Source of the DNA: Candidatus Staskawiczbacteria bacterium | GTDB taxonomy: Bacteria; Patescibacteriota; Minisyncoccia; Minisyncoccales; Staskawiczbacteraceae | NCBI GenBank assembly: GCA_041661545.1 | Contig: JBAZUH010000001.1 | Coordinates: 147,877-211,876 of the forward strand | Length of the DNA stretch: 64,000 nt | Direction: 5' to 3' | Shown here: piece after piece, positions 11,473-47,646 of the stretch | Layout: each line of letters opens with the position of its first letter | How positions within the stretch are numbered: position 1 is the stretch's first letter | Translations under genes and position numbers: made by a program | Notes under the pieces: model-generated | The model's database searches: none | What the model saw: only the letters and a program-made list of their open reading frames with translations | What the model was told of the DNA's origin: nothing

Positions 11473-12243
11473 ATGACAAAAGAAGTAAAATGGCTTCTAG
11501 ATGAGAAGTATAACGGCAAAAAAACAGAAAGTTTTTATAAAGATGTTAAAAGGCTCGAAGCTGGTGAGCCGGTTGATTATGTAATAGGATTTACTGAGTT
11601 TTTGGGTTGTAAAATTGATTTATCTAAAAAACCTTTAATACCACGACCAGAAACAGAATATTGGGTATGTGAAGAGATTAAGAGAATTAGTCGCGTTTTT
11701 GGCGAACGCCAAAAACGCGACTTTTTTGCCTTAGACATGTTTGCGGGGTCGGGGTGCATTGGAATTGCTATTTTGCGCCACGTGAAAAATGTGAAAGTTA
11801 TTTTTGCAGATAAAAGCCAAGATTGTGTTAAGCAAATAAAAATTAATCTTAAAATAAACCATGTCAAAAAGGGTTTTATTGTGCGACAATCAGATATATT
11901 TAGTAATATAAAAGAGAAGGCCGATTACATTTTCGCTAATCCGCCATATATTCCAACAACACGCAGAAGTAGGGTTGGAAAATCTGTTTTAAAATTTGAA
12001 CCGCACAAAGCTTTATTTGCCGGCAAAAATGGACTATTTTTTATAAATAAATTTTTAAAAGATGCCAAAAAATATTTAAATGCCGGTGGAATAATTTTTA
12101 TGGAATTTGATGGTTTGGCAGGCTCGTCACATGCCCCATCGCAGAAAAAAGAAATAGAAAAATTAATAAAAAAATATAAATATTCTAAATGGGAATTTAA
12201 AAAAGATCAATATAACCGTTGGCGCTGGGTCGAAATACAATAA
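11473..12243 (+). CDS. prmC: release-factor glutamine N5-methyltransferase PrmC/HemK
   Basis: 256 aa; SAM-binding DMFAGSGCIG and catalytic NPPY (FANPPYIP). Confidence 0.85.
   Translation: MTKEVKWLLDEKYNGKKTESFYKDVKRLEAGEPVDYVIGFTEFLGCKIDLSKKPLIPRPETEYWVCEEIKRISRVFGERQKRDFFALDMFAGSGCIGIAILRHVKNVKVIFADKSQDCVKQIKINLKINHVKKGFIVRQSDIFSNIKEKADYIFANPPYIPTTRRSRVGKSVLKFEPHKALFAGKNGLFFINKFLKDAKKYLNAGGIIFMEFDGLAGSSHAPSQKKEIEKLIKKYKYSKWEFKKDQYNRWRWVEIQ
11878..11887 (+). repeat. ATTGTGCGAC polar motif copy 1
   Basis: Exact 10-mer inside prmC (read as I-V-R). Confidence 0.9.
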
Positions 12244-12244
12244 T

Positions 12245-12273
12245 TTGACGGAAATTGTCTAATCTGTTAATGT
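12245..12273 (+). promoter_or_regulatory. sigma70-like promoter of cassette I1
   Basis: TTGACG (12245-12250), 17-nt spacer, TAATGT (12268-12273). Confidence 0.45.
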
Positions 12274-12347
12274 TTAGATAAGTTATCATCTCGCGACTGA
12301 GATGCAAACACAAGCAGTTCGTTGTCAACCAAAATAGAGGAAGTAAA

Positions 12348-13697
12348 ATGAAGACGCAAGACATGGAACACAACAGAAAAGGCGCTATAATCGCCGAAGG
12401 TAAGACCAAGAGAATTCACAAAGTTCTTGGTCGACCAGGCTTGGTTATTGTTGAGTCGAAAGACGATATTACTGCCGGCGACGGGGAAAAACATGACGTC
12501 ATCAAAAACAAAGCTGAGCTGTCCACCGCAACAACATGTAATGTGTTTTCGTTGCTCAGGCATTGCGGCTTGCCGGTTGCCTTTGAGGACCAACTAAACC
12601 CCAAGGAATTCTTAGCTCCGGCGCTGGATATGATTCAATTGGAAGTTGTGGGGCGTCGTGTTGCAACGGGCTCTTACCTCCAGCGCAACCCGCACGTTCC
12701 CAATGGTACAGTGTTTCCACGCCTCGTGACCGAGTTCTACTTGAAGACGCACGGCTGCGAGTTCAACGGACACAAGTTCCCGAAAAGTACGCCAGGGAAA
12801 TCCTACGACGATCCGTACATGAAAATCGTCGGCGAAGAAGTCTGGCTCTATAATGCGCACATCCCGTTGGCTACGCAGGAGCCATTCCTCAAGCTTCCGC
12901 TTATCGAGATTTTCCCGAAAAACAACGGGGAAGAAGTGATGGCACGCATGGCTGCGTTGAATACGCTTGCTTTCCTGATCATTGAGAAGGCCTGGAAAAT
13001 CCTCGGCTATGACATGTTGGATTGGAAAATCGAATTTGGCTGGTACAACGACACGCTTTGTATCGGAGACGTGATCGACGCTGATTCGTGGCGTGTGATG
13101 AAGGATGGGCAGAAATTGTCCAAGCAGGCTTACCGTGATAATGAAGGGCTTACTGTGATGGAAAAAGTCCTACGCAGGACGGCAACACTCACCGGTTGTT
13201 TTCGGATTCCCGAGCAGTCTTTGGTGGTATGGAGTGGTTCGCCAAACGATGATACGAACCCCTTCATGACGGCTTTCAAGCTATTCACCGACTCAGGAAT
13301 TCCCGGATTGAACATTCATTGCTTCGTCAGATCTGCTCACAAAGAAACGATTCAGTCGGCGTTTATGTTACAGGACATGGAATTTGGTTGTAAAGGCCTT
13401 GGTGATTCCACCCCATTGCCCGATCCGGTTATCGTCACTAACGTTGGAAGGAGTAATGGTTTGGGACCTATGTGTGCGGCGAATAGCATGGTGCCGGTTA
13501 TCAGTACAGTTCCCGACCCGGTGGATGTCAACTCATCGTTGCGCATGCCCAGCGATGTTCCGCTGATGGTGGTTACCGATCCTAAACTCGCCGTTCAGGC
13601 CGCGCTCAAGATTCTTGCCGGCAGAAATCCTTTATTATGGGCTCTTTTGCGCCTGAAGCAGGAAGAGCGCACGACTAATGCGATTCTGCTTCCGTAA
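12348..13697 (+). CDS. bifunctional SAICAR synthetase / class II AIR carboxylase (PurC-PurE fusion, PAICS-like)
   Basis: 449 aa and GC-rich. N-terminal half carries PurC motifs (EGKTK, SKDDITAGDG, VVGRRVATGSYLQRNP, DWKIEFG, VIDADSWR). C-terminal half carries PurE motifs (RSAHK, GRSNGLGP). The domain order and several blocks match what I recall of animal PAICS. Confidence 0.85.
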   Translation: MKTQDMEHNRKGAIIAEGKTKRIHKVLGRPGLVIVESKDDITAGDGEKHDVIKNKAELSTATTCNVFSLLRHCGLPVAFEDQLNPKEFLAPALDMIQLEVVGRRVATGSYLQRNPHVPNGTVFPRLVTEFYLKTHGCEFNGHKFPKSTPGKSYDDPYMKIVGEEVWLYNAHIPLATQEPFLKLPLIEIFPKNNGEEVMARMAALNTLAFLIIEKAWKILGYDMLDWKIEFGWYNDTLCIGDVIDADSWRVMKDGQKLSKQAYRDNEGLTVMEKVLRRTATLTGCFRIPEQSLVVWSGSPNDDTNPFMTAFKLFTDSGIPGLNIHCFVRSAHKETIQSAFMLQDMEFGCKGLGDSTPLPDPVIVTNVGRSNGLGPMCAANSMVPVISTVPDPVDVNSSLRMPSDVPLMVVTDPKLAVQAALKILAGRNPLLWALLRLKQEERTTNAILLP

Positions 13698-13724
13698 TCG
13701 GTGTAACTCCATTTTTTTATTTTT

Positions 13725-13760
13725 GCCCGCTACGCTTTGCGTTTGCCGGGCTCTTTTTTT
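13725..13760 (+). terminator. intrinsic terminator of cassette I1
   Basis: GCCCG...CGGGC stem with inner ACGC/GCGT, then TC + 7 T. Confidence 0.65.
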
Positions 13761-13778
13761 ATGGTAATATATATTAAT

Positions 13779-14465
13779 ATGCTAGAGAAACAGATAAAAT
13801 TATCACCAAATTCGTTAAACCTTTATTTAGATTGTCCACATTGCTTTTGGTTAGATAAAAATTTGGGCATTAAAAGACCTCCGCCATATCCCTATGCATT
13901 AAATTCTGCAGTTGACGCATTATTAAAAGAAGAGTTTGATACATATAGAGCAAAAAATTTGCCACATCCAATTTTTAAGGAGAACCATATAAAAGCCCAC
14001 TTATTTGGCAACCAAAAACTGTTAAATCAATGGAGGAACAATTTGGCTGGAATAAGATATTTTGATGAAGACTTAAAAGCCACTTTATTTGGTGCTGTTG
14101 ATGATGTTTTAGAATTTGATAATGGTGAACTAGCCCCTTTAGATTATAAATCAACTGGAAGCACAGCAGGAAAAGTTTATGATAGATTTCAGCTTCAGTT
14201 AGATACATATACATTTTTAATGGAAAAAAACGGATACAAAACTCCAAGAAAAGGTTATTTAGCTTTTTATATTGTAGATAAAAGTAGGGGATTTATTGAT
14301 AGATTGCCATTTAGAAAAGAAATTGTAGAAATAGAAACAAATCCATTGGATGTTTATGAAATTTTTAAAGATGCAGTTAAGATTTTAAGAGAACCCCAAC
14401 CTCCAAAACATAGTTTAGATTGTGTTTTTAAAAAGTTTTTAGATGGGGCAAAAAATTTTAATTAA
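13779..14465 (+). CDS. PD-(D/E)XK (Cas4/RecB-like) nuclease family protein
   Basis: N-terminal CPHCFW cysteine pair; D...DYK core (VDDVLEF...LAPLDYKS); QLQLDTY. The start at 13779 (or 13761) was chosen to clear the upstream terminator. Confidence 0.55.
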   Translation: MLEKQIKLSPNSLNLYLDCPHCFWLDKNLGIKRPPPYPYALNSAVDALLKEEFDTYRAKNLPHPIFKENHIKAHLFGNQKLLNQWRNNLAGIRYFDEDLKATLFGAVDDVLEFDNGELAPLDYKSTGSTAGKVYDRFQLQLDTYTFLMEKNGYKTPRKGYLAFYIVDKSRGFIDRLPFRKEIVEIETNPLDVYEIFKDAVKILREPQPPKHSLDCVFKKFLDGAKNFN

Positions 14466-22997: not shown

Positions 22998-23624
22998 TTG
23001 AAAATGTCCCCACCGAATACCACCATGAAAACGTTCCAAAAACTCCGTCAGAAGATCCTCGGACAAAGCTGCCTGGGAAGCCTTTTGGTCATTGCCGTGT
23101 TCGCCGTGATGATCATCATGATTTGTGGCGTGCACTGGCCTACGACGGCACTTGCTGCTCAGACACCGCAATCCGTAGATATCAAGGCCAAGGAGTTGTT
23201 TCGGCCGACCGAGGCGATGTTTCACGTGCAGAATGAGGACATCGCCGTTACCGTGCTTCGGCCAATTCTCGATGAGTCCTCAACCAAGGACCACTTAGTC
23301 ATCGTCGGTTACAACCCGACGGTGGTTATCCCCGACTATATGGAGTTCGTCGGTACGCCCCAGTGTCACTGGGATGGTATTCACGAAAGTACGCGCTGGG
23401 CATACACCATTTATGTCCGGCATGGATCCACTGGTCGCCTGGCGACTCGCCAGATTAACCTCGCGGATTTCATGTCGGCCTACCCGGATGCGTTGGGATC
23501 CAAGCTTGTTCGTCTAGGCGTCATCTCCGGCAACAATTCCGTGGAGTTTACCACGATGCCCTTTAGCCGGATGAATCTTGATCAGGGGATGAACCCCTGG
23601 GATTTTGTCGAGACCGAGGAATAG
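22998..23624 (+). CDS. membrane-anchored hypothetical protein (GC-rich cassette I2)
   Basis: 208-aa GC-rich ORF. Start ambiguous (TTG 22998, ATG 23004 or 23025). One TM helix (LLVIAVFAVMIIMICGV), then a ~150-aa domain with no recognised family. Confidence 0.5.
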   Translation: MKMSPPNTTMKTFQKLRQKILGQSCLGSLLVIAVFAVMIIMICGVHWPTTALAAQTPQSVDIKAKELFRPTEAMFHVQNEDIAVTVLRPILDESSTKDHLVIVGYNPTVVIPDYMEFVGTPQCHWDGIHESTRWAYTIYVRHGSTGRLATRQINLADFMSAYPDALGSKLVRLGVISGNNSVEFTTMPFSRMNLDQGMNPWDFVETEE

Positions 23625-42157: not shown

Positions 42158-42176
42158 TTAGACAATACAATTTAAA

Positions 42177-42308
42177 TTATCAAGAGAATAGGAAAGGGTA
42201 CTGACCCGTTAAATCCTATCAGCAACCTGCTTAGTTGAGTAAGGTGCTAATTTCAGCCCGAAAGGGAAAGATAAATTTTTAATTAGCTTTCCCATAAGGA
42301 AAGTTTTT
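42177..42308 (+). promoter_or_regulatory. SAM-I (S-box) riboswitch with terminator
   Basis: TTATCAAGAG...GGAAAGGGTACTGACCC...AATCC..TCAGCAACC...GGTGCTAATTTCAGC...AGATAA matches the S-box core. The terminator CTTTCC-CATAA-GGAAAG + T5 (42287-42308) can compete with GGGAAAG of the aptamer 3' side. Confidence 0.85.
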
Positions 42309-42314
42309 ACGTTT

Positions 42315-43364
42315 ATGATTATAAATCAAAAAACATATGCAGTAGAAAGTGTGACATCTGGTCATCCAGATAAAGTTTGCGATCAAATTTCAGACGCAAT
42401 TTTAGATGCTTGTTTAGCACAAGATGCAAATTCAAGAGTTGCAGTAGAATCATTTGGTGGGCATGGAATGTTAGTTGTTGGCGGAGAAGTTACAACAACA
42501 GCAAAAGTTGATTATCAGGCAATTGCAGAAAAAGTTTATAAAGATATTGGTTATACTCAAGAATTAAAATTTATAGTAAATGTTGTTGAACAATCACCAG
42601 ATATTGCTATGGGTGTAAATACTGGCGGAGCAGGGGATCAGGGCATTATGTATGGATATGCTACAAGCGAAACCCCAGAATATATGCCATGGGCAGTGGT
42701 TAAGGTTCATGCTTTAGCAAAAGGCTTGCAAAATTTAAGAGAATCAGGAGAAATAAAATGGCTAAAACCAGATGGAAAATCTCAAATAACAATGCAAGAT
42801 GGAAAAATTAAAAATGTTTTAATTAGCACTCAGCATGATGTGGAAGTTTTGCAAGAAGAAATAAAAAACACTTTAACAGAAAAATTAATAAAACCAATTT
42901 TAGGAGATATCGCTGGCATAGATATATTTGTTAATCCAACGGGAAATTTTGTGCAAGGTGGTTTTGAGGCTGACACTGGTTTAACTGGCCGAAAAATAAT
43001 GGTAGATACTTATTGCGGTTTAATTTCTCACGGTGGTGGAGCTTTTTCAGGCAAAGACCCAAGCAAAGTAGACAGGTCAGCTGCTTATATGGCTAGATTT
43101 GCAGCAAAAAATATTGTTGCTAATGGATACGCAAAAGAATGTTTGGTATCGGTGGCTTATGCAATTGGCATGGCCGAACCATTAATGGTTTCTGCAGTTG
43201 ATGAAAATGGAAAAAGTTTAGATGAATTAATTGCTAAGTTTGATTTTAAACCACAATCTATTATTAAAACTTTAGAATTAAAACAGCCTATTTATCAAAA
43301 AACAGCAGCCTACGGTCATTTTGGAAAAGCCGACCTACCCTGGGAAAAAATAATCAAAATCTAA
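42315..43364 (+). CDS. metK: S-adenosylmethionine synthase
   Basis: 349 aa; ESVTSGHPDKVCDQISDAILD, GAGDQG, GGGAFSGKDPSKVDRS. Confidence 0.95.
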   Translation: MIINQKTYAVESVTSGHPDKVCDQISDAILDACLAQDANSRVAVESFGGHGMLVVGGEVTTTAKVDYQAIAEKVYKDIGYTQELKFIVNVVEQSPDIAMGVNTGGAGDQGIMYGYATSETPEYMPWAVVKVHALAKGLQNLRESGEIKWLKPDGKSQITMQDGKIKNVLISTQHDVEVLQEEIKNTLTEKLIKPILGDIAGIDIFVNPTGNFVQGGFEADTGLTGRKIMVDTYCGLISHGGGAFSGKDPSKVDRSAAYMARFAAKNIVANGYAKECLVSVAYAIGMAEPLMVSAVDENGKSLDELIAKFDFKPQSIIKTLELKQPIYQKTAAYGHFGKADLPWEKIIKI

Positions 43365-45100: not shown

Positions 45101-45167
45101 GGCACAATGTTGTGTCAACTAAAGCGACAAAGAGGTCTCCTACGCAGGTAGGGGATTTTTGTTGTTT
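45101..45167 (+). promoter_or_regulatory. ANTAR-type leader: two hexaloop hairpins overlapping an intrinsic terminator
   Basis: HP1 is GGCAC-AATGTT-GTGTC (45101-45116). A 7-nt linker follows. HP2 is GCGAC-AAAGAG-GUCUC (45124-45139). Both loops have A at position 1 and G at position 4. The terminator CTCCTAC-GCAG-GTAGGGG + ATTTTTGTTGTTT (45137-45167) shares 45137-45139 with the HP2 3' arm. Confidence 0.65.
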
Positions 45168-45225
45168 AGGCTCATTGAAAACCAATCTTACAGGAACAAC
45201 AACCAGCCAACCAAAGGAGAACCAA

Positions 45226-45453
45226 ATGAACAACTGTCCACTTGCAAAAAATTGCGGAACCAAAAGGTTTTTGGATGATTTCTATGGCGACAGCCACCCC
45301 GATAAGCCTTGCTCGGGCATTTATGCCAGTTGCCACCTCTATATAGCAGACAGAGATGCCCGAGAAGTAGCCGAAGATGCCAAGGACTCGTCCGATCACC
45401 ATTCTGGCGAGCACGCTTCACTTCTGGACAAATTGCTGAGGAGAGCTGGTTAA
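45226..45453 (+). CDS. 75-aa Cys/His-rich hypothetical protein (cassette I6, gene a)
   Basis: ATG 45226 preceded by AAAGGAGAA; Cys at 4, 10, 29 and 36; His/Asp-rich acidic tail; terminator at 45483-45513. Confidence 0.5.
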   Translation: MNNCPLAKNCGTKRFLDDFYGDSHPDKPCSGIYASCHLYIADRDAREVAEDAKDSSDHHSGEHASLLDKLLRRAG

Positions 45454-45482
45454 TAACCATGGTTGATTGATCTCGTCTCTAT

Positions 45483-45513
45483 GCCGCGTTTCCCAAAGCG
45501 TGGCTCTTTTTTT
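45483..45513 (+). terminator. intrinsic terminator after I6 gene a
   Basis: GCCGCG-TTTCCCAAAG-CGTGGC (one G.U), then TC + 7 T. Confidence 0.6.
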
Positions 45514-45593
45514 GACTTTATTGATTTTGTGTTGTAAGTTATACATACTACAACATTGTGTTGTGGCGTTCATTTACAAGTAGAACAACAACT

Positions 45594-46226
45594 ATGAAAA
45601 CACGATATTTACTGATTGGCTTTGTATGCGCATTGGCGCTTGGCTGTCAAAAGCCTGAAAATACTTCGGCAAAAACGGAAAATGTATGGGGTAAATTTGC
45701 AAAGAGCGTTCTTGCAGCCGGGAAGGCCAAAGACGCCGACACATTCGTCAACAAGCTGAGCATGTCCAGCGTTGCCGACCTCGACGCTCTGCTTGAGGAG
45801 CTGAAAAAAGCTAACCCCGAAGTTGAATTTGAGGAGAACGCGGAAAGACCCACGGACGCCGAGATCCGCAAAGAAGCAGAGGCAAACGTGCGCCTCTTCA
45901 TGAACTCGTACGCGGACGTGTTTGACGGCGGCGGTGAGCTTTTTAGTGTTATAACCGCTCAATTCCCCGAGACAAGGGGCACAAACATTTACTCCTTGAT
46001 CATTTGGGCAAAACAAAGCGACGGAAAATTTCGGGGCATCAAGGTCGACAGCGTCTGGAAGAAAGACGACGGCACCATTAAGGTTATGACGTGGACGCAA
46101 CTTAGTGGCTACGAAGCCAGCAAGGGCGCCATCTCAAAAAAGGCCATTCTGGAACGTGACACTGCCGAGGCTTGTAATTACCCAGAGTGGATACAATATA
46201 AAACTGTTTTCACTGACCCAAACTAG
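45594..46226 (+). CDS. putative lipoprotein (cassette I6, gene b)
   Basis: From ATG 45594: MKTRYLLIGFVCALALGC is a lipoprotein-type signal with a lipobox-like LALGC. 210-aa GC-rich ORF; no family recognised. Confidence 0.55.
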   Translation: MKTRYLLIGFVCALALGCQKPENTSAKTENVWGKFAKSVLAAGKAKDADTFVNKLSMSSVADLDALLEELKKANPEVEFEENAERPTDAEIRKEAEANVRLFMNSYADVFDGGGELFSVITAQFPETRGTNIYSLIIWAKQSDGKFRGIKVDSVWKKDDGTIKVMTWTQLSGYEASKGAISKKAILERDTAEACNYPEWIQYKTVFTDPN

Positions 46227-46674: not shown

Positions 46675-47646
46675 TTATTTTTTGTCGGGGTCGCTGTGAT
46701 ATTGATGATGGATGTCGCGGAGGCGTTTGTTGGTGACGTGCGTGTAAATTTGAGTTGTTGCAATATTTGAGTGGCCGAGGAATTCTTGAATGGAACGAAG
46801 GTCAACTCCTTGATTCATTAAATCTGTTGCATAACTGTGGCGTAAAGTGTGGGGAGTTGTGAAAACTGGCACCCCAGAAAGTAAAGCATATTTTTTAACC
46901 ATTCTTTCGATTGAACGTGAAGTTAGGCGGGCATCGGTATTATCTTTTTTATCGCGAAAATTTATAAACAAAGCTTTTTGATTGGCGTGCGAAACATTAT
47001 TTCTTATTTCTAAATATTTTTTAATGTATTCTAACGCACGTTCTGAAAAATAAACTACACGGGGTTTGCCACCTTTTCCAATAACGCCCAACTCGATATC
47101 TTTTTTATTTTTTATACTATTAAATTGCTCAAGATTTAAAGATATTAATTCGGCAATTCTAAGCCCGGTTGAAAAAAAGCTCTCTAAAATAGCACGATCT
47201 CTGATGCTTATATCATCTTTTGGCTCTATAGATGACAAAAGCTTGCCAATTTGTTCTAAGGTAAGGAATTTGATACTTTTTAGGCCCCTATCAGCCTTTG
47301 CAAGGGCTATTTTGTCTGGGGGTAGGGAAACTATGTCTTTTGCCACAAAGTAGCCTAAAAGGGCTCTTAGGGCTATTAAATAGTAGTTTTGGGTGCCTTT
47401 TGATAGTAATTTACCTGTAGCTGGGCTTGGAGTGCGAGATAGGTATAAACGGTATGCCCAAATATGTTCAGAGGTCAATTGGTGGGGGAGAATAGAGCTA
47501 TTTTTGCTGGTATCTAACCATACAAAAAACTTTTCTAAATAATTTTTATAATTTTCCTGAGTATTTTTTCTTAAACCTTTTTCAACTTCACAAAAATCTA
47601 AAAAATCTTGCAAATGTTGTTTAATTGATTTGTTTGAATTTTTCAT
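46675..47646 (-). CDS. xerC: tyrosine recombinase XerC/XerD family
   Basis: 323 aa; SAM-like N-domain; catalytic R...HxxR...Y (GLRIAEL, HTLRHSYATDL, GHSNIATTQIYTHV). Promoter TTGACC, 16-nt spacer, TATTAT on the - strand at about 47713-47740. Confidence 0.9.
   Translation of the reverse strand: MKNSNKSIKQHLQDFLDFCEVEKGLRKNTQENYKNYLEKFFVWLDTSKNSSILPHQLTSEHIWAYRLYLSRTPSPATGKLLSKGTQNYYLIALRALLGYFVAKDIVSLPPDKIALAKADRGLKSIKFLTLEQIGKLLSSIEPKDDISIRDRAILESFFSTGLRIAELISLNLEQFNSIKNKKDIELGVIGKGGKPRVVYFSERALEYIKKYLEIRNNVSHANQKALFINFRDKKDNTDARLTSRSIERMVKKYALLSGVPVFTTPHTLRHSYATDLMNQGVDLRSIQEFLGHSNIATTQIYTHVTNKRLRDIHHQYHSDPDKK

Follow-up and report, generated by a model that had tools for sequence, protein, structure and literature searches.

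How does a gene reminiscent of animal PAICS, in which SAICAR (phosphoribosylaminoimidazole-succinocarboxamide) synthetase, PurC, is fused to aminoimidazole ribonucleotide (AIR) carboxylase, PurE, come to stand by itself in the genome of a bacterium of the candidate phyla radiation (CPR)? The question is raised by a stretch of 64,000 nucleotides from a Candidatus Staskawiczbacteria bacterium (assembly GCA_041661545.1, contig JBAZUH010000001.1, positions 147,877 to 211,876 of the forward strand), called the window in what follows. In it, the original prediction had singled out positions 12244-13760 as an isolated, horizontally acquired and possibly repurposed fusion gene. This interval comprises a 449-amino-acid (aa) open reading frame (ORF) that starts with ATG, together with its leader and a terminator-like region (Table 1). 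As judged from the comparisons reported here, the gene belongs to a type that is known but seldom discussed, the bacterial PAICS-type PurC-PurE(II) fusions, in which the PurE part is of class II, and its clade within this type is distinct and compact. Most probably, it encodes a functional bifunctional enzyme converting AIR via carboxyaminoimidazole ribonucleotide (CAIR) to SAICAR, which would have been acquired horizontally a long time ago and inherited vertically ever since.

Pfam recognizes the N-terminal part of the protein as SAICAR_synt (PF01259, E-value 5.9e-34) and the C-terminal part as AIRC (PF00731, 5.3e-10, aa 301-441). Among proteins of solved structure, the best sequence matches are PAICS from silkworm (4ja0, 2.6e-46) and human (2h31, 2.1e-44), and in both cases the two halves are aligned. 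The motifs quoted in the original prediction are all found in the ORF: EGKTK (aa 17-21), ITAG (aa 41-44), KIEFG (aa 227-231), DVIDADSWR (aa 241-249) and KQAYRD (aa 259-264) in the PurC half, and GSPND (aa 297-301), RSAHK (aa 328-332), GRSNGLGP (aa 367-374) and SSLRMPS (aa 396-402) in the PurE half. An AlphaFold2 model of the whole protein (predicted local distance difference test, pLDDT, 83.8; predicted template modelling score, pTM, 0.87) resembles solved PAICS over its full length: Foldseek places human PAICS (6yb8_A) at the top with an E-value of 2.3e-31 and template modelling (TM) scores of 0.64/0.68, and silkworm PAICS (4ja0) is also among the best matches. In NCBIfam, the purC and purE matches to the fusion protein both stay below threshold. 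This database has no dedicated fusion model, so that each annotation names one half of the protein only, and annotation pipelines call the bacterial fusions either 'phosphoribosylaminoimidazole carboxylase / SAICAR synthase' or by the name of one half.

Class I PurE proteins, the N5-CAIR mutases, carry the motifs SAHR and GGAAHLPG. By its sequence, the PurE half belongs instead to class II, the AIR carboxylases. This assignment is based on the motifs RSAHK and GRSNGLGP, on the lack of a purK gene in the 64-kb window and on the ranking of proteins matched by the C-terminal half alone: human and silkworm PAICS come first (5e-9), followed by the stand-alone class II PurE of Treponema denticola (0.084) and by class I PurE (0.62). 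Likewise, the best Foldseek match of the model among stand-alone PurE chains is the class II enzyme of T. denticola (3rgg). Pfam, the PAICS alignments, Foldseek and the ranking of the C-terminal half thus agree with the original prediction that an N-terminal PurC is joined to a C-terminal class II PurE.

The same prediction had called the protein animal-PAICS-like and had regarded the order of its halves as characteristic of metazoan PAICS. Neither view survives a comparison with bacterial proteins. In a collection of 5.8 billion proteins, 11 full-length cluster representatives are 67-80 % identical to the window protein, after which identity falls sharply to 45-48 %. The group at about 45 % is not eukaryotic: one member (P0106) is encoded on a contig of 2.2 Mb among genes that are clearly bacterial, and one of the clusters bears the name Pseudolabrys. 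Among the species representatives of GTDB at least 586 relatives were found, and the best 80 of these are all near-full-length bacterial fusions. They come from Xanthobacteraceae/Pseudolabrys/Hyphomicrobiales, Verrucomicrobiota, Polyangiaceae, Dependentiae and Tepidisphaerales and, within the CPR, from Gracilibacteria, Saccharibacteria, Vogelbacteria, Paceibacterota and another, distant copy from Staskawiczbacteria. When 1.84 billion representatives clustered at 50 % identity were searched exhaustively with HMMER, 327 proteins were retrieved at E <= 1e-30; the window clade is one representative of this set (76 % identity), and the next match is at 44 %. The best hits are therefore bacterial purCE fusions that occur in relatives, the very outcome named beforehand as reducing the case to routine metabolism, which it largely is.

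Identities to the window protein, calculated on a trimmed alignment, are 72-80 % within its clade and 43-47 % for other bacterial fusions, and fall to 34 % for human PAICS and 26 % for concatenated E. coli PurC and PurE. Bit scores follow the same order, with about 370 for bacterial fusions and 155-161 for human and silkworm PAICS. Neighbour-joining (NJ) trees were rooted on E. coli, with one eukaryote sampled and with 200 bootstrap replicates for the whole protein and 100 for each half. In the whole-protein tree, the window clade (100 %) has a long branch and forms the sister group of all the remaining bacterial fusions, and human PAICS falls outside (99.5 %). Human PAICS also lies outside the bacterial group in the trees of the N-terminal (96 %) and C-terminal (88 %) halves. 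Since the trees of the two halves agree, the fusion was inherited as a unit. While the deep topology of the family is to be taken as provisional, a specifically animal affinity of the window protein is excluded by these sequence comparisons. Two further forms were encountered in the searches. In a Verrucomicrobia metagenome-assembled genome (L062, 9965-12175, + strand), the fusion ORF is in frame with a Rhomboid domain (1.1e-13), giving 737 aa with SAICAR_synt, AIRC and Rhomboid, which is either genuinely a triple fusion or the result of an overlooked stop codon. Stand-alone PurC proteins of the PAICS type (about 265-300 aa, 28-35 % identity), which match only aa ~10-285 of the query and have no PurE half, occur in metagenomes and on viral contigs (L100-L123 from IMG/VR; P0289-P0395) as products of purC-like auxiliary genes.

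The closest known counterparts are thus the bacterial PurC-PurE(II) fusions of about 425-450 aa, which have the same domain order, length class and active-site residues as the window protein and share with it an insertion, relative to animal PAICS, after the equivalent of Lys131. Unlike them, the window clade stands apart on a long branch, collapses into one cluster at 50 % identity and has genes richer in GC than their hosts; its PurC insert is longer, and there is an additional PurE insert with a conserved Cys. Animal PAICS (human 2H31/6YB8, Bombyx mori 4JA0) shares the succession of SAICAR synthetase and AIR carboxylase, the class II PurE chemistry, the catalytic residues and the fold (TM 0.61-0.68), but is more distant in sequence, branches outside the bacterial group and has no insertion between the equivalents of K131 and D137. 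The animal enzyme assembles into octamers and channels its substrate; the window protein is known here from its sequence and model. The T. denticola class II PurE (3RG8/3RGG) has the same class II motifs (GRSN..., SSLRMPS) and is the best stand-alone PurE both by fold and by sequence, but it is not fused to PurC and its sequence match is weak. Finally, the separate PurC, class I PurE and PurK of the E. coli type achieve the same net conversion of AIR to SAICAR but with three proteins and an extra ATP spent via N5-CAIR.

Are the active sites intact? Residues were compared in an alignment of human PAICS, the window protein and 20 homologs, using human PAICS numbering. The human sequence used was taken to be correct, as its length is right, the numbered segments spot-checked against the structure alignment agree, and every listed position has the published residue. 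The residues lining both human PAICS active sites are those listed in PMC9376930. In the SAICAR synthetase site, 20 of the 24 listed positions are identical to human PAICS. They include G16, K17, T18 and K19 of the P-loop, T40, A41, G42 and V99, the Mg ligands E97 and D137, the residues K131, K191, E193, D207, D212, S213, W214 and R215, and K228 and R232, which bind aspartate. Four positions are changed: N43D, which silkworm PAICS has too, F129Y, D133H and M190W. In the AIR carboxylase site, the general base H303 is kept along with G273, S274, D277, S301, A302, K304, G330, R331, S332, N333, G334 and L335; five listed positions differ (M272S, T275P, S276N, V328N and A329V), and all five vary among the other bacterial fusions. 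Every catalytic, metal-binding and phosphate-binding residue of the two human sites is present, with the exception of Ser276.

This exception is what the original prediction had read as an anomaly, a GSxSD motif altered to GSPND. Across the bacterial family the fourth position of the motif can be N, S, H, D, K, T or A, with no variation at Ser274 and Asp277. As the S276 position is variable in the family, GSPND is no sign of repurposing. The suggestion that the enzyme might have been repurposed is at odds with the retention of its catalytic residues and with the purifying selection described below. Two clade-specific inserts distinguish the protein, one in the PurC half (HGCEFNGHKFPKSTPGKSY, about aa 135-153), located between the equivalents of Lys131 and Asp137, and one in the PurE half, EFGCKGLGD, at about aa 344-352. 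Both contain invariant Cys/His residues, in HGCEFNGHKF beside the PurC metal site and in EFGCKGLG in the PurE half. A further peculiarity of the clade concerns the phosphate-contacting Arg331 (window aa 368), which is replaced by Met (GMSNGLGP) in most members (P0002-P0005, P0007, P0008, P0011 and P0012) and kept in the window protein and P0006.

That the gene is GC-rich and compositionally foreign, in keeping with horizontal acquisition, holds good. Its GC content is 0.503, compared with 0.30-0.34 in the flanking genes, and its GC content at third codon positions (GC3) is 0.587, compared with a median of 0.206 for the 65 ORFs of the window, where it ranks second. In two relatives, the GC3 of the fusion is 0.60 (host 0.34) and 0.62 (host 0.40), and that of their adenylosuccinate lyase gene, purB, is 0.49-0.53. 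Host-like GC3 is found in the distant Staskawiczbacteria copy (L085, 0.21 for a host value of 0.24) and in the Dependentiae copy. Among three genomes of the clade, the fusion protein is 76-77 % identical; for the flanking proteins the figures are 58-64 % (PrmC), 80-86 % (PD-(D/E)XK nuclease) and 57-62 % (membrane fusion protein, MFP). A recent transfer was rejected, as this divergence between genomes matches that of the flanks and synonymous divergence (dS) is saturated. Compared with the two relatives, the ratio of nonsynonymous to synonymous divergence (dN/dS) is 0.08-0.09, with the saturation of dS applying here also, and such a low value indicates purifying selection on the fusion. The window protein carries one private change at columns invariant in the family (range among members 0-5) and 10/233 within the clade (range 4-13). 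On the branch leading to the window, dN is about 0.08, equal to that on the branch of the purB-bearing relative L004. With the active-site residues kept and no excess of unusual substitutions, a decaying gene or pseudogene was rejected for now. The simplest account of these data would be a single ancient acquisition from a much GC-richer donor, after which the gene descended vertically and ameliorated only in part; alternatively, the high GC3 might stem from selection on codon usage. As for a mobile vector, phage records, plasmids and IMG/VR contigs yielded stand-alone purC-like halves only (<=35 % identity) and no fusion.

The gene order in the window is RmuC, L21, PrmC, the fusion, a PD-(D/E)XK nuclease, an HlyD-type MFP, an ABC ATPase and two FtsX proteins. 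An independent short-read assembly (Logan contig, L007) gives the same succession of prmC, fusion and PD-(D/E)XK gene, so that the placement of the gene is not an assembly artefact, and the PD-(D/E)XK gene also follows the fusion in L001, L004, L097 and L098. Relatives with this order carry purB (493-527 aa; 295-308 bits on TIGR00928, just under the 326-bit cut-off) immediately upstream of the fusion. It is found directly 5' of it in L001-L005, L008, L098 and L099. Upstream sequence is known for four lineages, all of them with purB, and the three genomes that can be compared give conflicting sister relations; either the window lineage has lost purB or the gene never entered this slot in it. 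Beyond the clade, the fusion lies beside purB and purH in Vogelbacteria (L071), with purB, purH and purM in L061, near purL/purD/purM in Dependentiae (L047) and with purB in L048. In most CPR loci, it is isolated from other pur genes. The fact that members of the family are embedded in pur clusters elsewhere, CPR included, supports a canonical pathway role.

Some relatives have a further gene at this locus. A GC-rich pyrB (aspartate carbamoyltransferase, TIGR00670 3.2e-78, GC 0.478) is located at 5866-6849 in L001 and at 1012-2037 in L099, between L21 and the methyltransferase gene or genes that precede purB; it is absent from the corresponding slot of the window, where prmC directly follows L21. 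The occurrence of pyrB together with purB and the fusion at one place means that the same locus collects nucleotide-synthesis genes. Another observation concerns purB upstream of one and the same fusion protein (P0005), which is a single 527-aa ORF in L098 (135-1718) and two ORFs of 324 and 203 aa in L099 (2809-4391), due either to a frameshift error or to strain-level erosion.

According to the reading that we consider likely, the class II PurE domain would carboxylate AIR with CO2 to give CAIR, requiring neither PurK nor ATP, and the PurC domain would then ligate CAIR and aspartate with the help of ATP and Mg to form SAICAR, the two reactions following each other late in de novo purine synthesis. 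The ancestor of one Staskawiczbacteria subclade would have gained the gene horizontally from a GC-richer donor, after which it would have been held in a fixed slot between prmC and the PD-(D/E)XK gene and passed on vertically under strong purifying selection. The present analysis shows the domain architecture, the conservation of the active sites, the fold, the family to which the protein belongs, its composition and synteny, and the selective constraint on it. We infer the enzymatic activities, the direction of the transfer and its age, and a supply of AIR as well as PurB and PurH steps somewhere in the genome.

A number of points weigh against this reading. CPR genomes usually lack de novo purine synthesis, which leaves AIR supply and SAICAR use unproven for the window genome. 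The isolation of the gene among non-purine genes, as described in the original prediction, is real: when 13 E. coli proteins (PurF, D, N, L, M, K, E, C, B, H, A, GuaA and Upp) were compared by phmmer with window ORFs of >=70 aa at E <= 1e-5, the fusion ORF alone was matched, and there is no other pur gene in the 64 kb. By tblastn, purB is absent both from its usual position and from the entire window. A search for PurB homologs returned none from the window genome among the best 120 matches, a list that ends at 49 % identity, so that a purB of the ordinary CPR type at another place in the 738-kb genome would be missed. The persistence of a high GC3 despite saturated dS calls for a donor of very high GC content or else for selection on codon usage, and the comparisons made revealed no specific donor of the fusion gene. 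Moreover, a literature search yielded no enzymatic data for any bacterial member of the family.

What else could account for such a solitary gene? It might be the orphaned remnant of a purB-purCE module, once present with pyrB nearby, from which purB has been lost, leaving a dead-end two-step fragment that has yet to decay in a genome undergoing reductive evolution. The presence of purB upstream of the fusion in every clade member with known upstream sequence and its absence from the window would fit this scenario, as would pyrB in L001 and L099 and not in the window slot, the split purB of L099 compared with the intact one of L098, which hints at erosion or a sequencing error, and the lack of other pur genes in the window. 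However, the fusion ORF is intact, it retains all catalytic residues, even the Arg331 that most clade members have replaced, and unusual substitutions are not in excess. The window branch has evolved no faster in dN than that of a relative with purB, the promoter-like, leader and terminator features are kept, and, given the conflicting sister relations of the three genomes, the window lineage may never have had purB at this locus. We therefore regard a remnant as unlikely. Contamination or a chimeric assembly of eukaryotic origin, or a direct transfer from an animal or another eukaryote, can be set aside with far more assurance. Animal PAICS does provide the best solved-structure matches, but this is because no bacterial fusion has a solved structure. 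Identity to human PAICS is lower than to bacterial fusions and human PAICS branches outside the bacterial group; moreover, the gene has no introns, it has a bacterial ribosome-binding site and a terminator-like stem, and synteny is kept in several independent assemblies and samples. Taken together, identity, trees, gene structure and synteny effectively refute a eukaryotic source.

A change of function has more to be said for it, even if we hold it to be improbable. The enzyme could operate in a partial pathway on host-derived AIR or AIR-riboside, exchange intermediates with a host, or run in reverse together with PurB, supplying AIR for thiamine-type chemistry. The clade-specific inserts with their invariant Cys/His, the Arg331 to Met replacement in most clade members, the long branch of the clade and the isolation of the gene in most CPR loci could all be read in this manner. 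Yet the canonical ligands for ribose, phosphate (Ser274, Lys304 and, in the window protein, Arg331), CO2/carboxylate, aspartate (Lys228, Arg232), ATP and Mg are in place, the same family resides within pur clusters of other bacteria, one CPR member included, and no neighbouring partner genes point to another pathway. A more specific proposal, to which we give only a small chance, is that the window genome lacks purB, purH and purM and keeps the enzyme as a stand-alone two-step module of a pathway that a host and its CPR episymbiont divide between them. Imported or host-derived AIR, or its riboside, would then be converted and SAICAR or CAIR handed to the partner cell or used otherwise, and the Cys/His inserts and the Arg331Met change of sister genomes would mark altered specificity or regulation. 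A canonical two-step enzyme, anciently acquired, is what the evidence as a whole favours.

Table 1. Features of the fusion gene and the edges of its slot, in window coordinates
Feature	Position	Strand	Basis or remark
prmC (release-factor glutamine methyltransferase), left edge of the slot	11473..12243	+	TIGR03534 5.6e-57; same flank in L001, L004, L099
Promoter-like element, TTGACG (12245-12250), 17-nt spacer, TAATGT (12268-12273)	12245..12273	+	Read from the sequence; putative function
Leader hairpin CAUCUC-GCGACU-GAGAUG	12287..12304	+	About 7-10 nt downstream of the predicted transcription start
Conserved leader box GTTCGTTG	12317..12324	+	GYTCRTTG in all five aligned clade genomes
Ribosome-binding site GAGGAA, 5 nt before ATG	12337..12342	+	Sequence; purine-rich GGA core aligned in relatives
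PurC-PurE(II) fusion gene, 449 aa, bacterial PAICS type	12348..13697	+	
SAICAR synthetase (PurC) half, ~aa 10-285	12375..13202	+	Pfam PF01259, residue alignment, Foldseek matches to PurC structures
Class II AIR carboxylase (PurE) half, ~aa 290-449; GSPND, SAHK, GRSNGLGP	13215..13694	+	Pfam PF00731, residue alignment
Intrinsic-terminator-like GC-rich stem (13725-13751), then CUCUUUUUUU	13725..13760	+	Fold -15 kcal/mol, z -1.68
PD-(D/E)XK (Cas4-like) nuclease gene, right edge of the slot	13761..14465	+	PF12705 on the called gene in L007

The gene appears, from its sequence context, to be a transcription unit of its own, although the individual signals proposed in the original prediction fare unequally. 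The promoter-like element, which begins 2 nt past the prmC stop codon, lies below the threshold of a consensus scan that found no more sites than in shuffled sequences. On the other hand, an alignment of five clade genomes (the window, L001, L004, L097 and L098) reveals a TTGACA/G box in all but L097 and, some 17 nt further on, a (G)TAATnTT-like box in all five. In the relatives, this layout is preceded by a terminator-like T-run of purB, which would make the fusion a separate transcription unit everywhere. A hairpin is indeed present in the leader and occurs at the same place in L001 (GCUUUC/GAAAGC), L004 (UGCCUU/AAGGCA) and L098 (GCUUUC/GAAAGC), with no clear counterpart in L097. The window hairpin does not exceed shuffled sequences in stability (z +0.35 and -0.70) and may possibly act as a 5' stabilising stem-loop. 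A riboswitch or another known RNA in the leader was rejected, as there is no Rfam match at E <= 1 in 12150-12450. The proposed terminator does have a stem followed by a U-run; it was missed by a simple scan because of its long branched loop, and it ends at the start codon of the PD-(D/E)XK gene. Gram-positive PurBoxes contain a CGAAC core, and the GTTCG core of the GYTCRTTG box in the leader is its reverse complement, which may be a coincidence.

Several other features of the window deserve mention. A 208-aa ORF at 22998-23624 (+ strand) has the highest GC3 of the window (0.675; GC 0.536) and neither a Pfam nor a credible Rfam hit; it is another compositionally foreign stretch. Two more GC-rich ORFs devoid of Pfam hits, at 45112-46226 (+) and 46675-47646 (-), with GC3 values of 0.465 and 0.556, adjoin a tyrosine recombinase (Phage_integrase, 2.4e-39). 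A peak of the cumulative GC skew and a flip of gene orientation from + to - are found here. The region looks like a replication terminus with an Xer-type recombinase or an integrated element. Hidden RNA genes were considered for these other GC-rich stretches and dismissed, no credible Rfam hit being obtained. A SAM riboswitch (RF00162, 51.1 bits, over the gathering score) at 42174-42277 (+) directly precedes metK (42315-43364, +), which encodes S-adenosylmethionine synthetase with all three Pfam domains.

What, then, does the locus teach us? The searchable literature mentions the PurC-PurE fusion only as 'common in eukaryotes', and a search of it brought up nothing specific about PurCE fusions of bacteria or about purine synthesis of the CPR in the case of the Staskawiczbacteria clade. 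The PAICS fusion is not an animal speciality, being spread over many bacterial phyla that include several CPR lineages, and the bacterial family is an obvious outgroup for studies on the origin of animal PAICS. For the biology of the CPR, the locus illustrates that purCE, purB and pyrB can arrive as GC-rich insertions at one conserved place and then be kept or lost lineage by lineage. If it is true that the rest of the pathway is absent from the genome, the gene would provide a concrete test case for a metabolic hand-off between CPR bacteria and their hosts.

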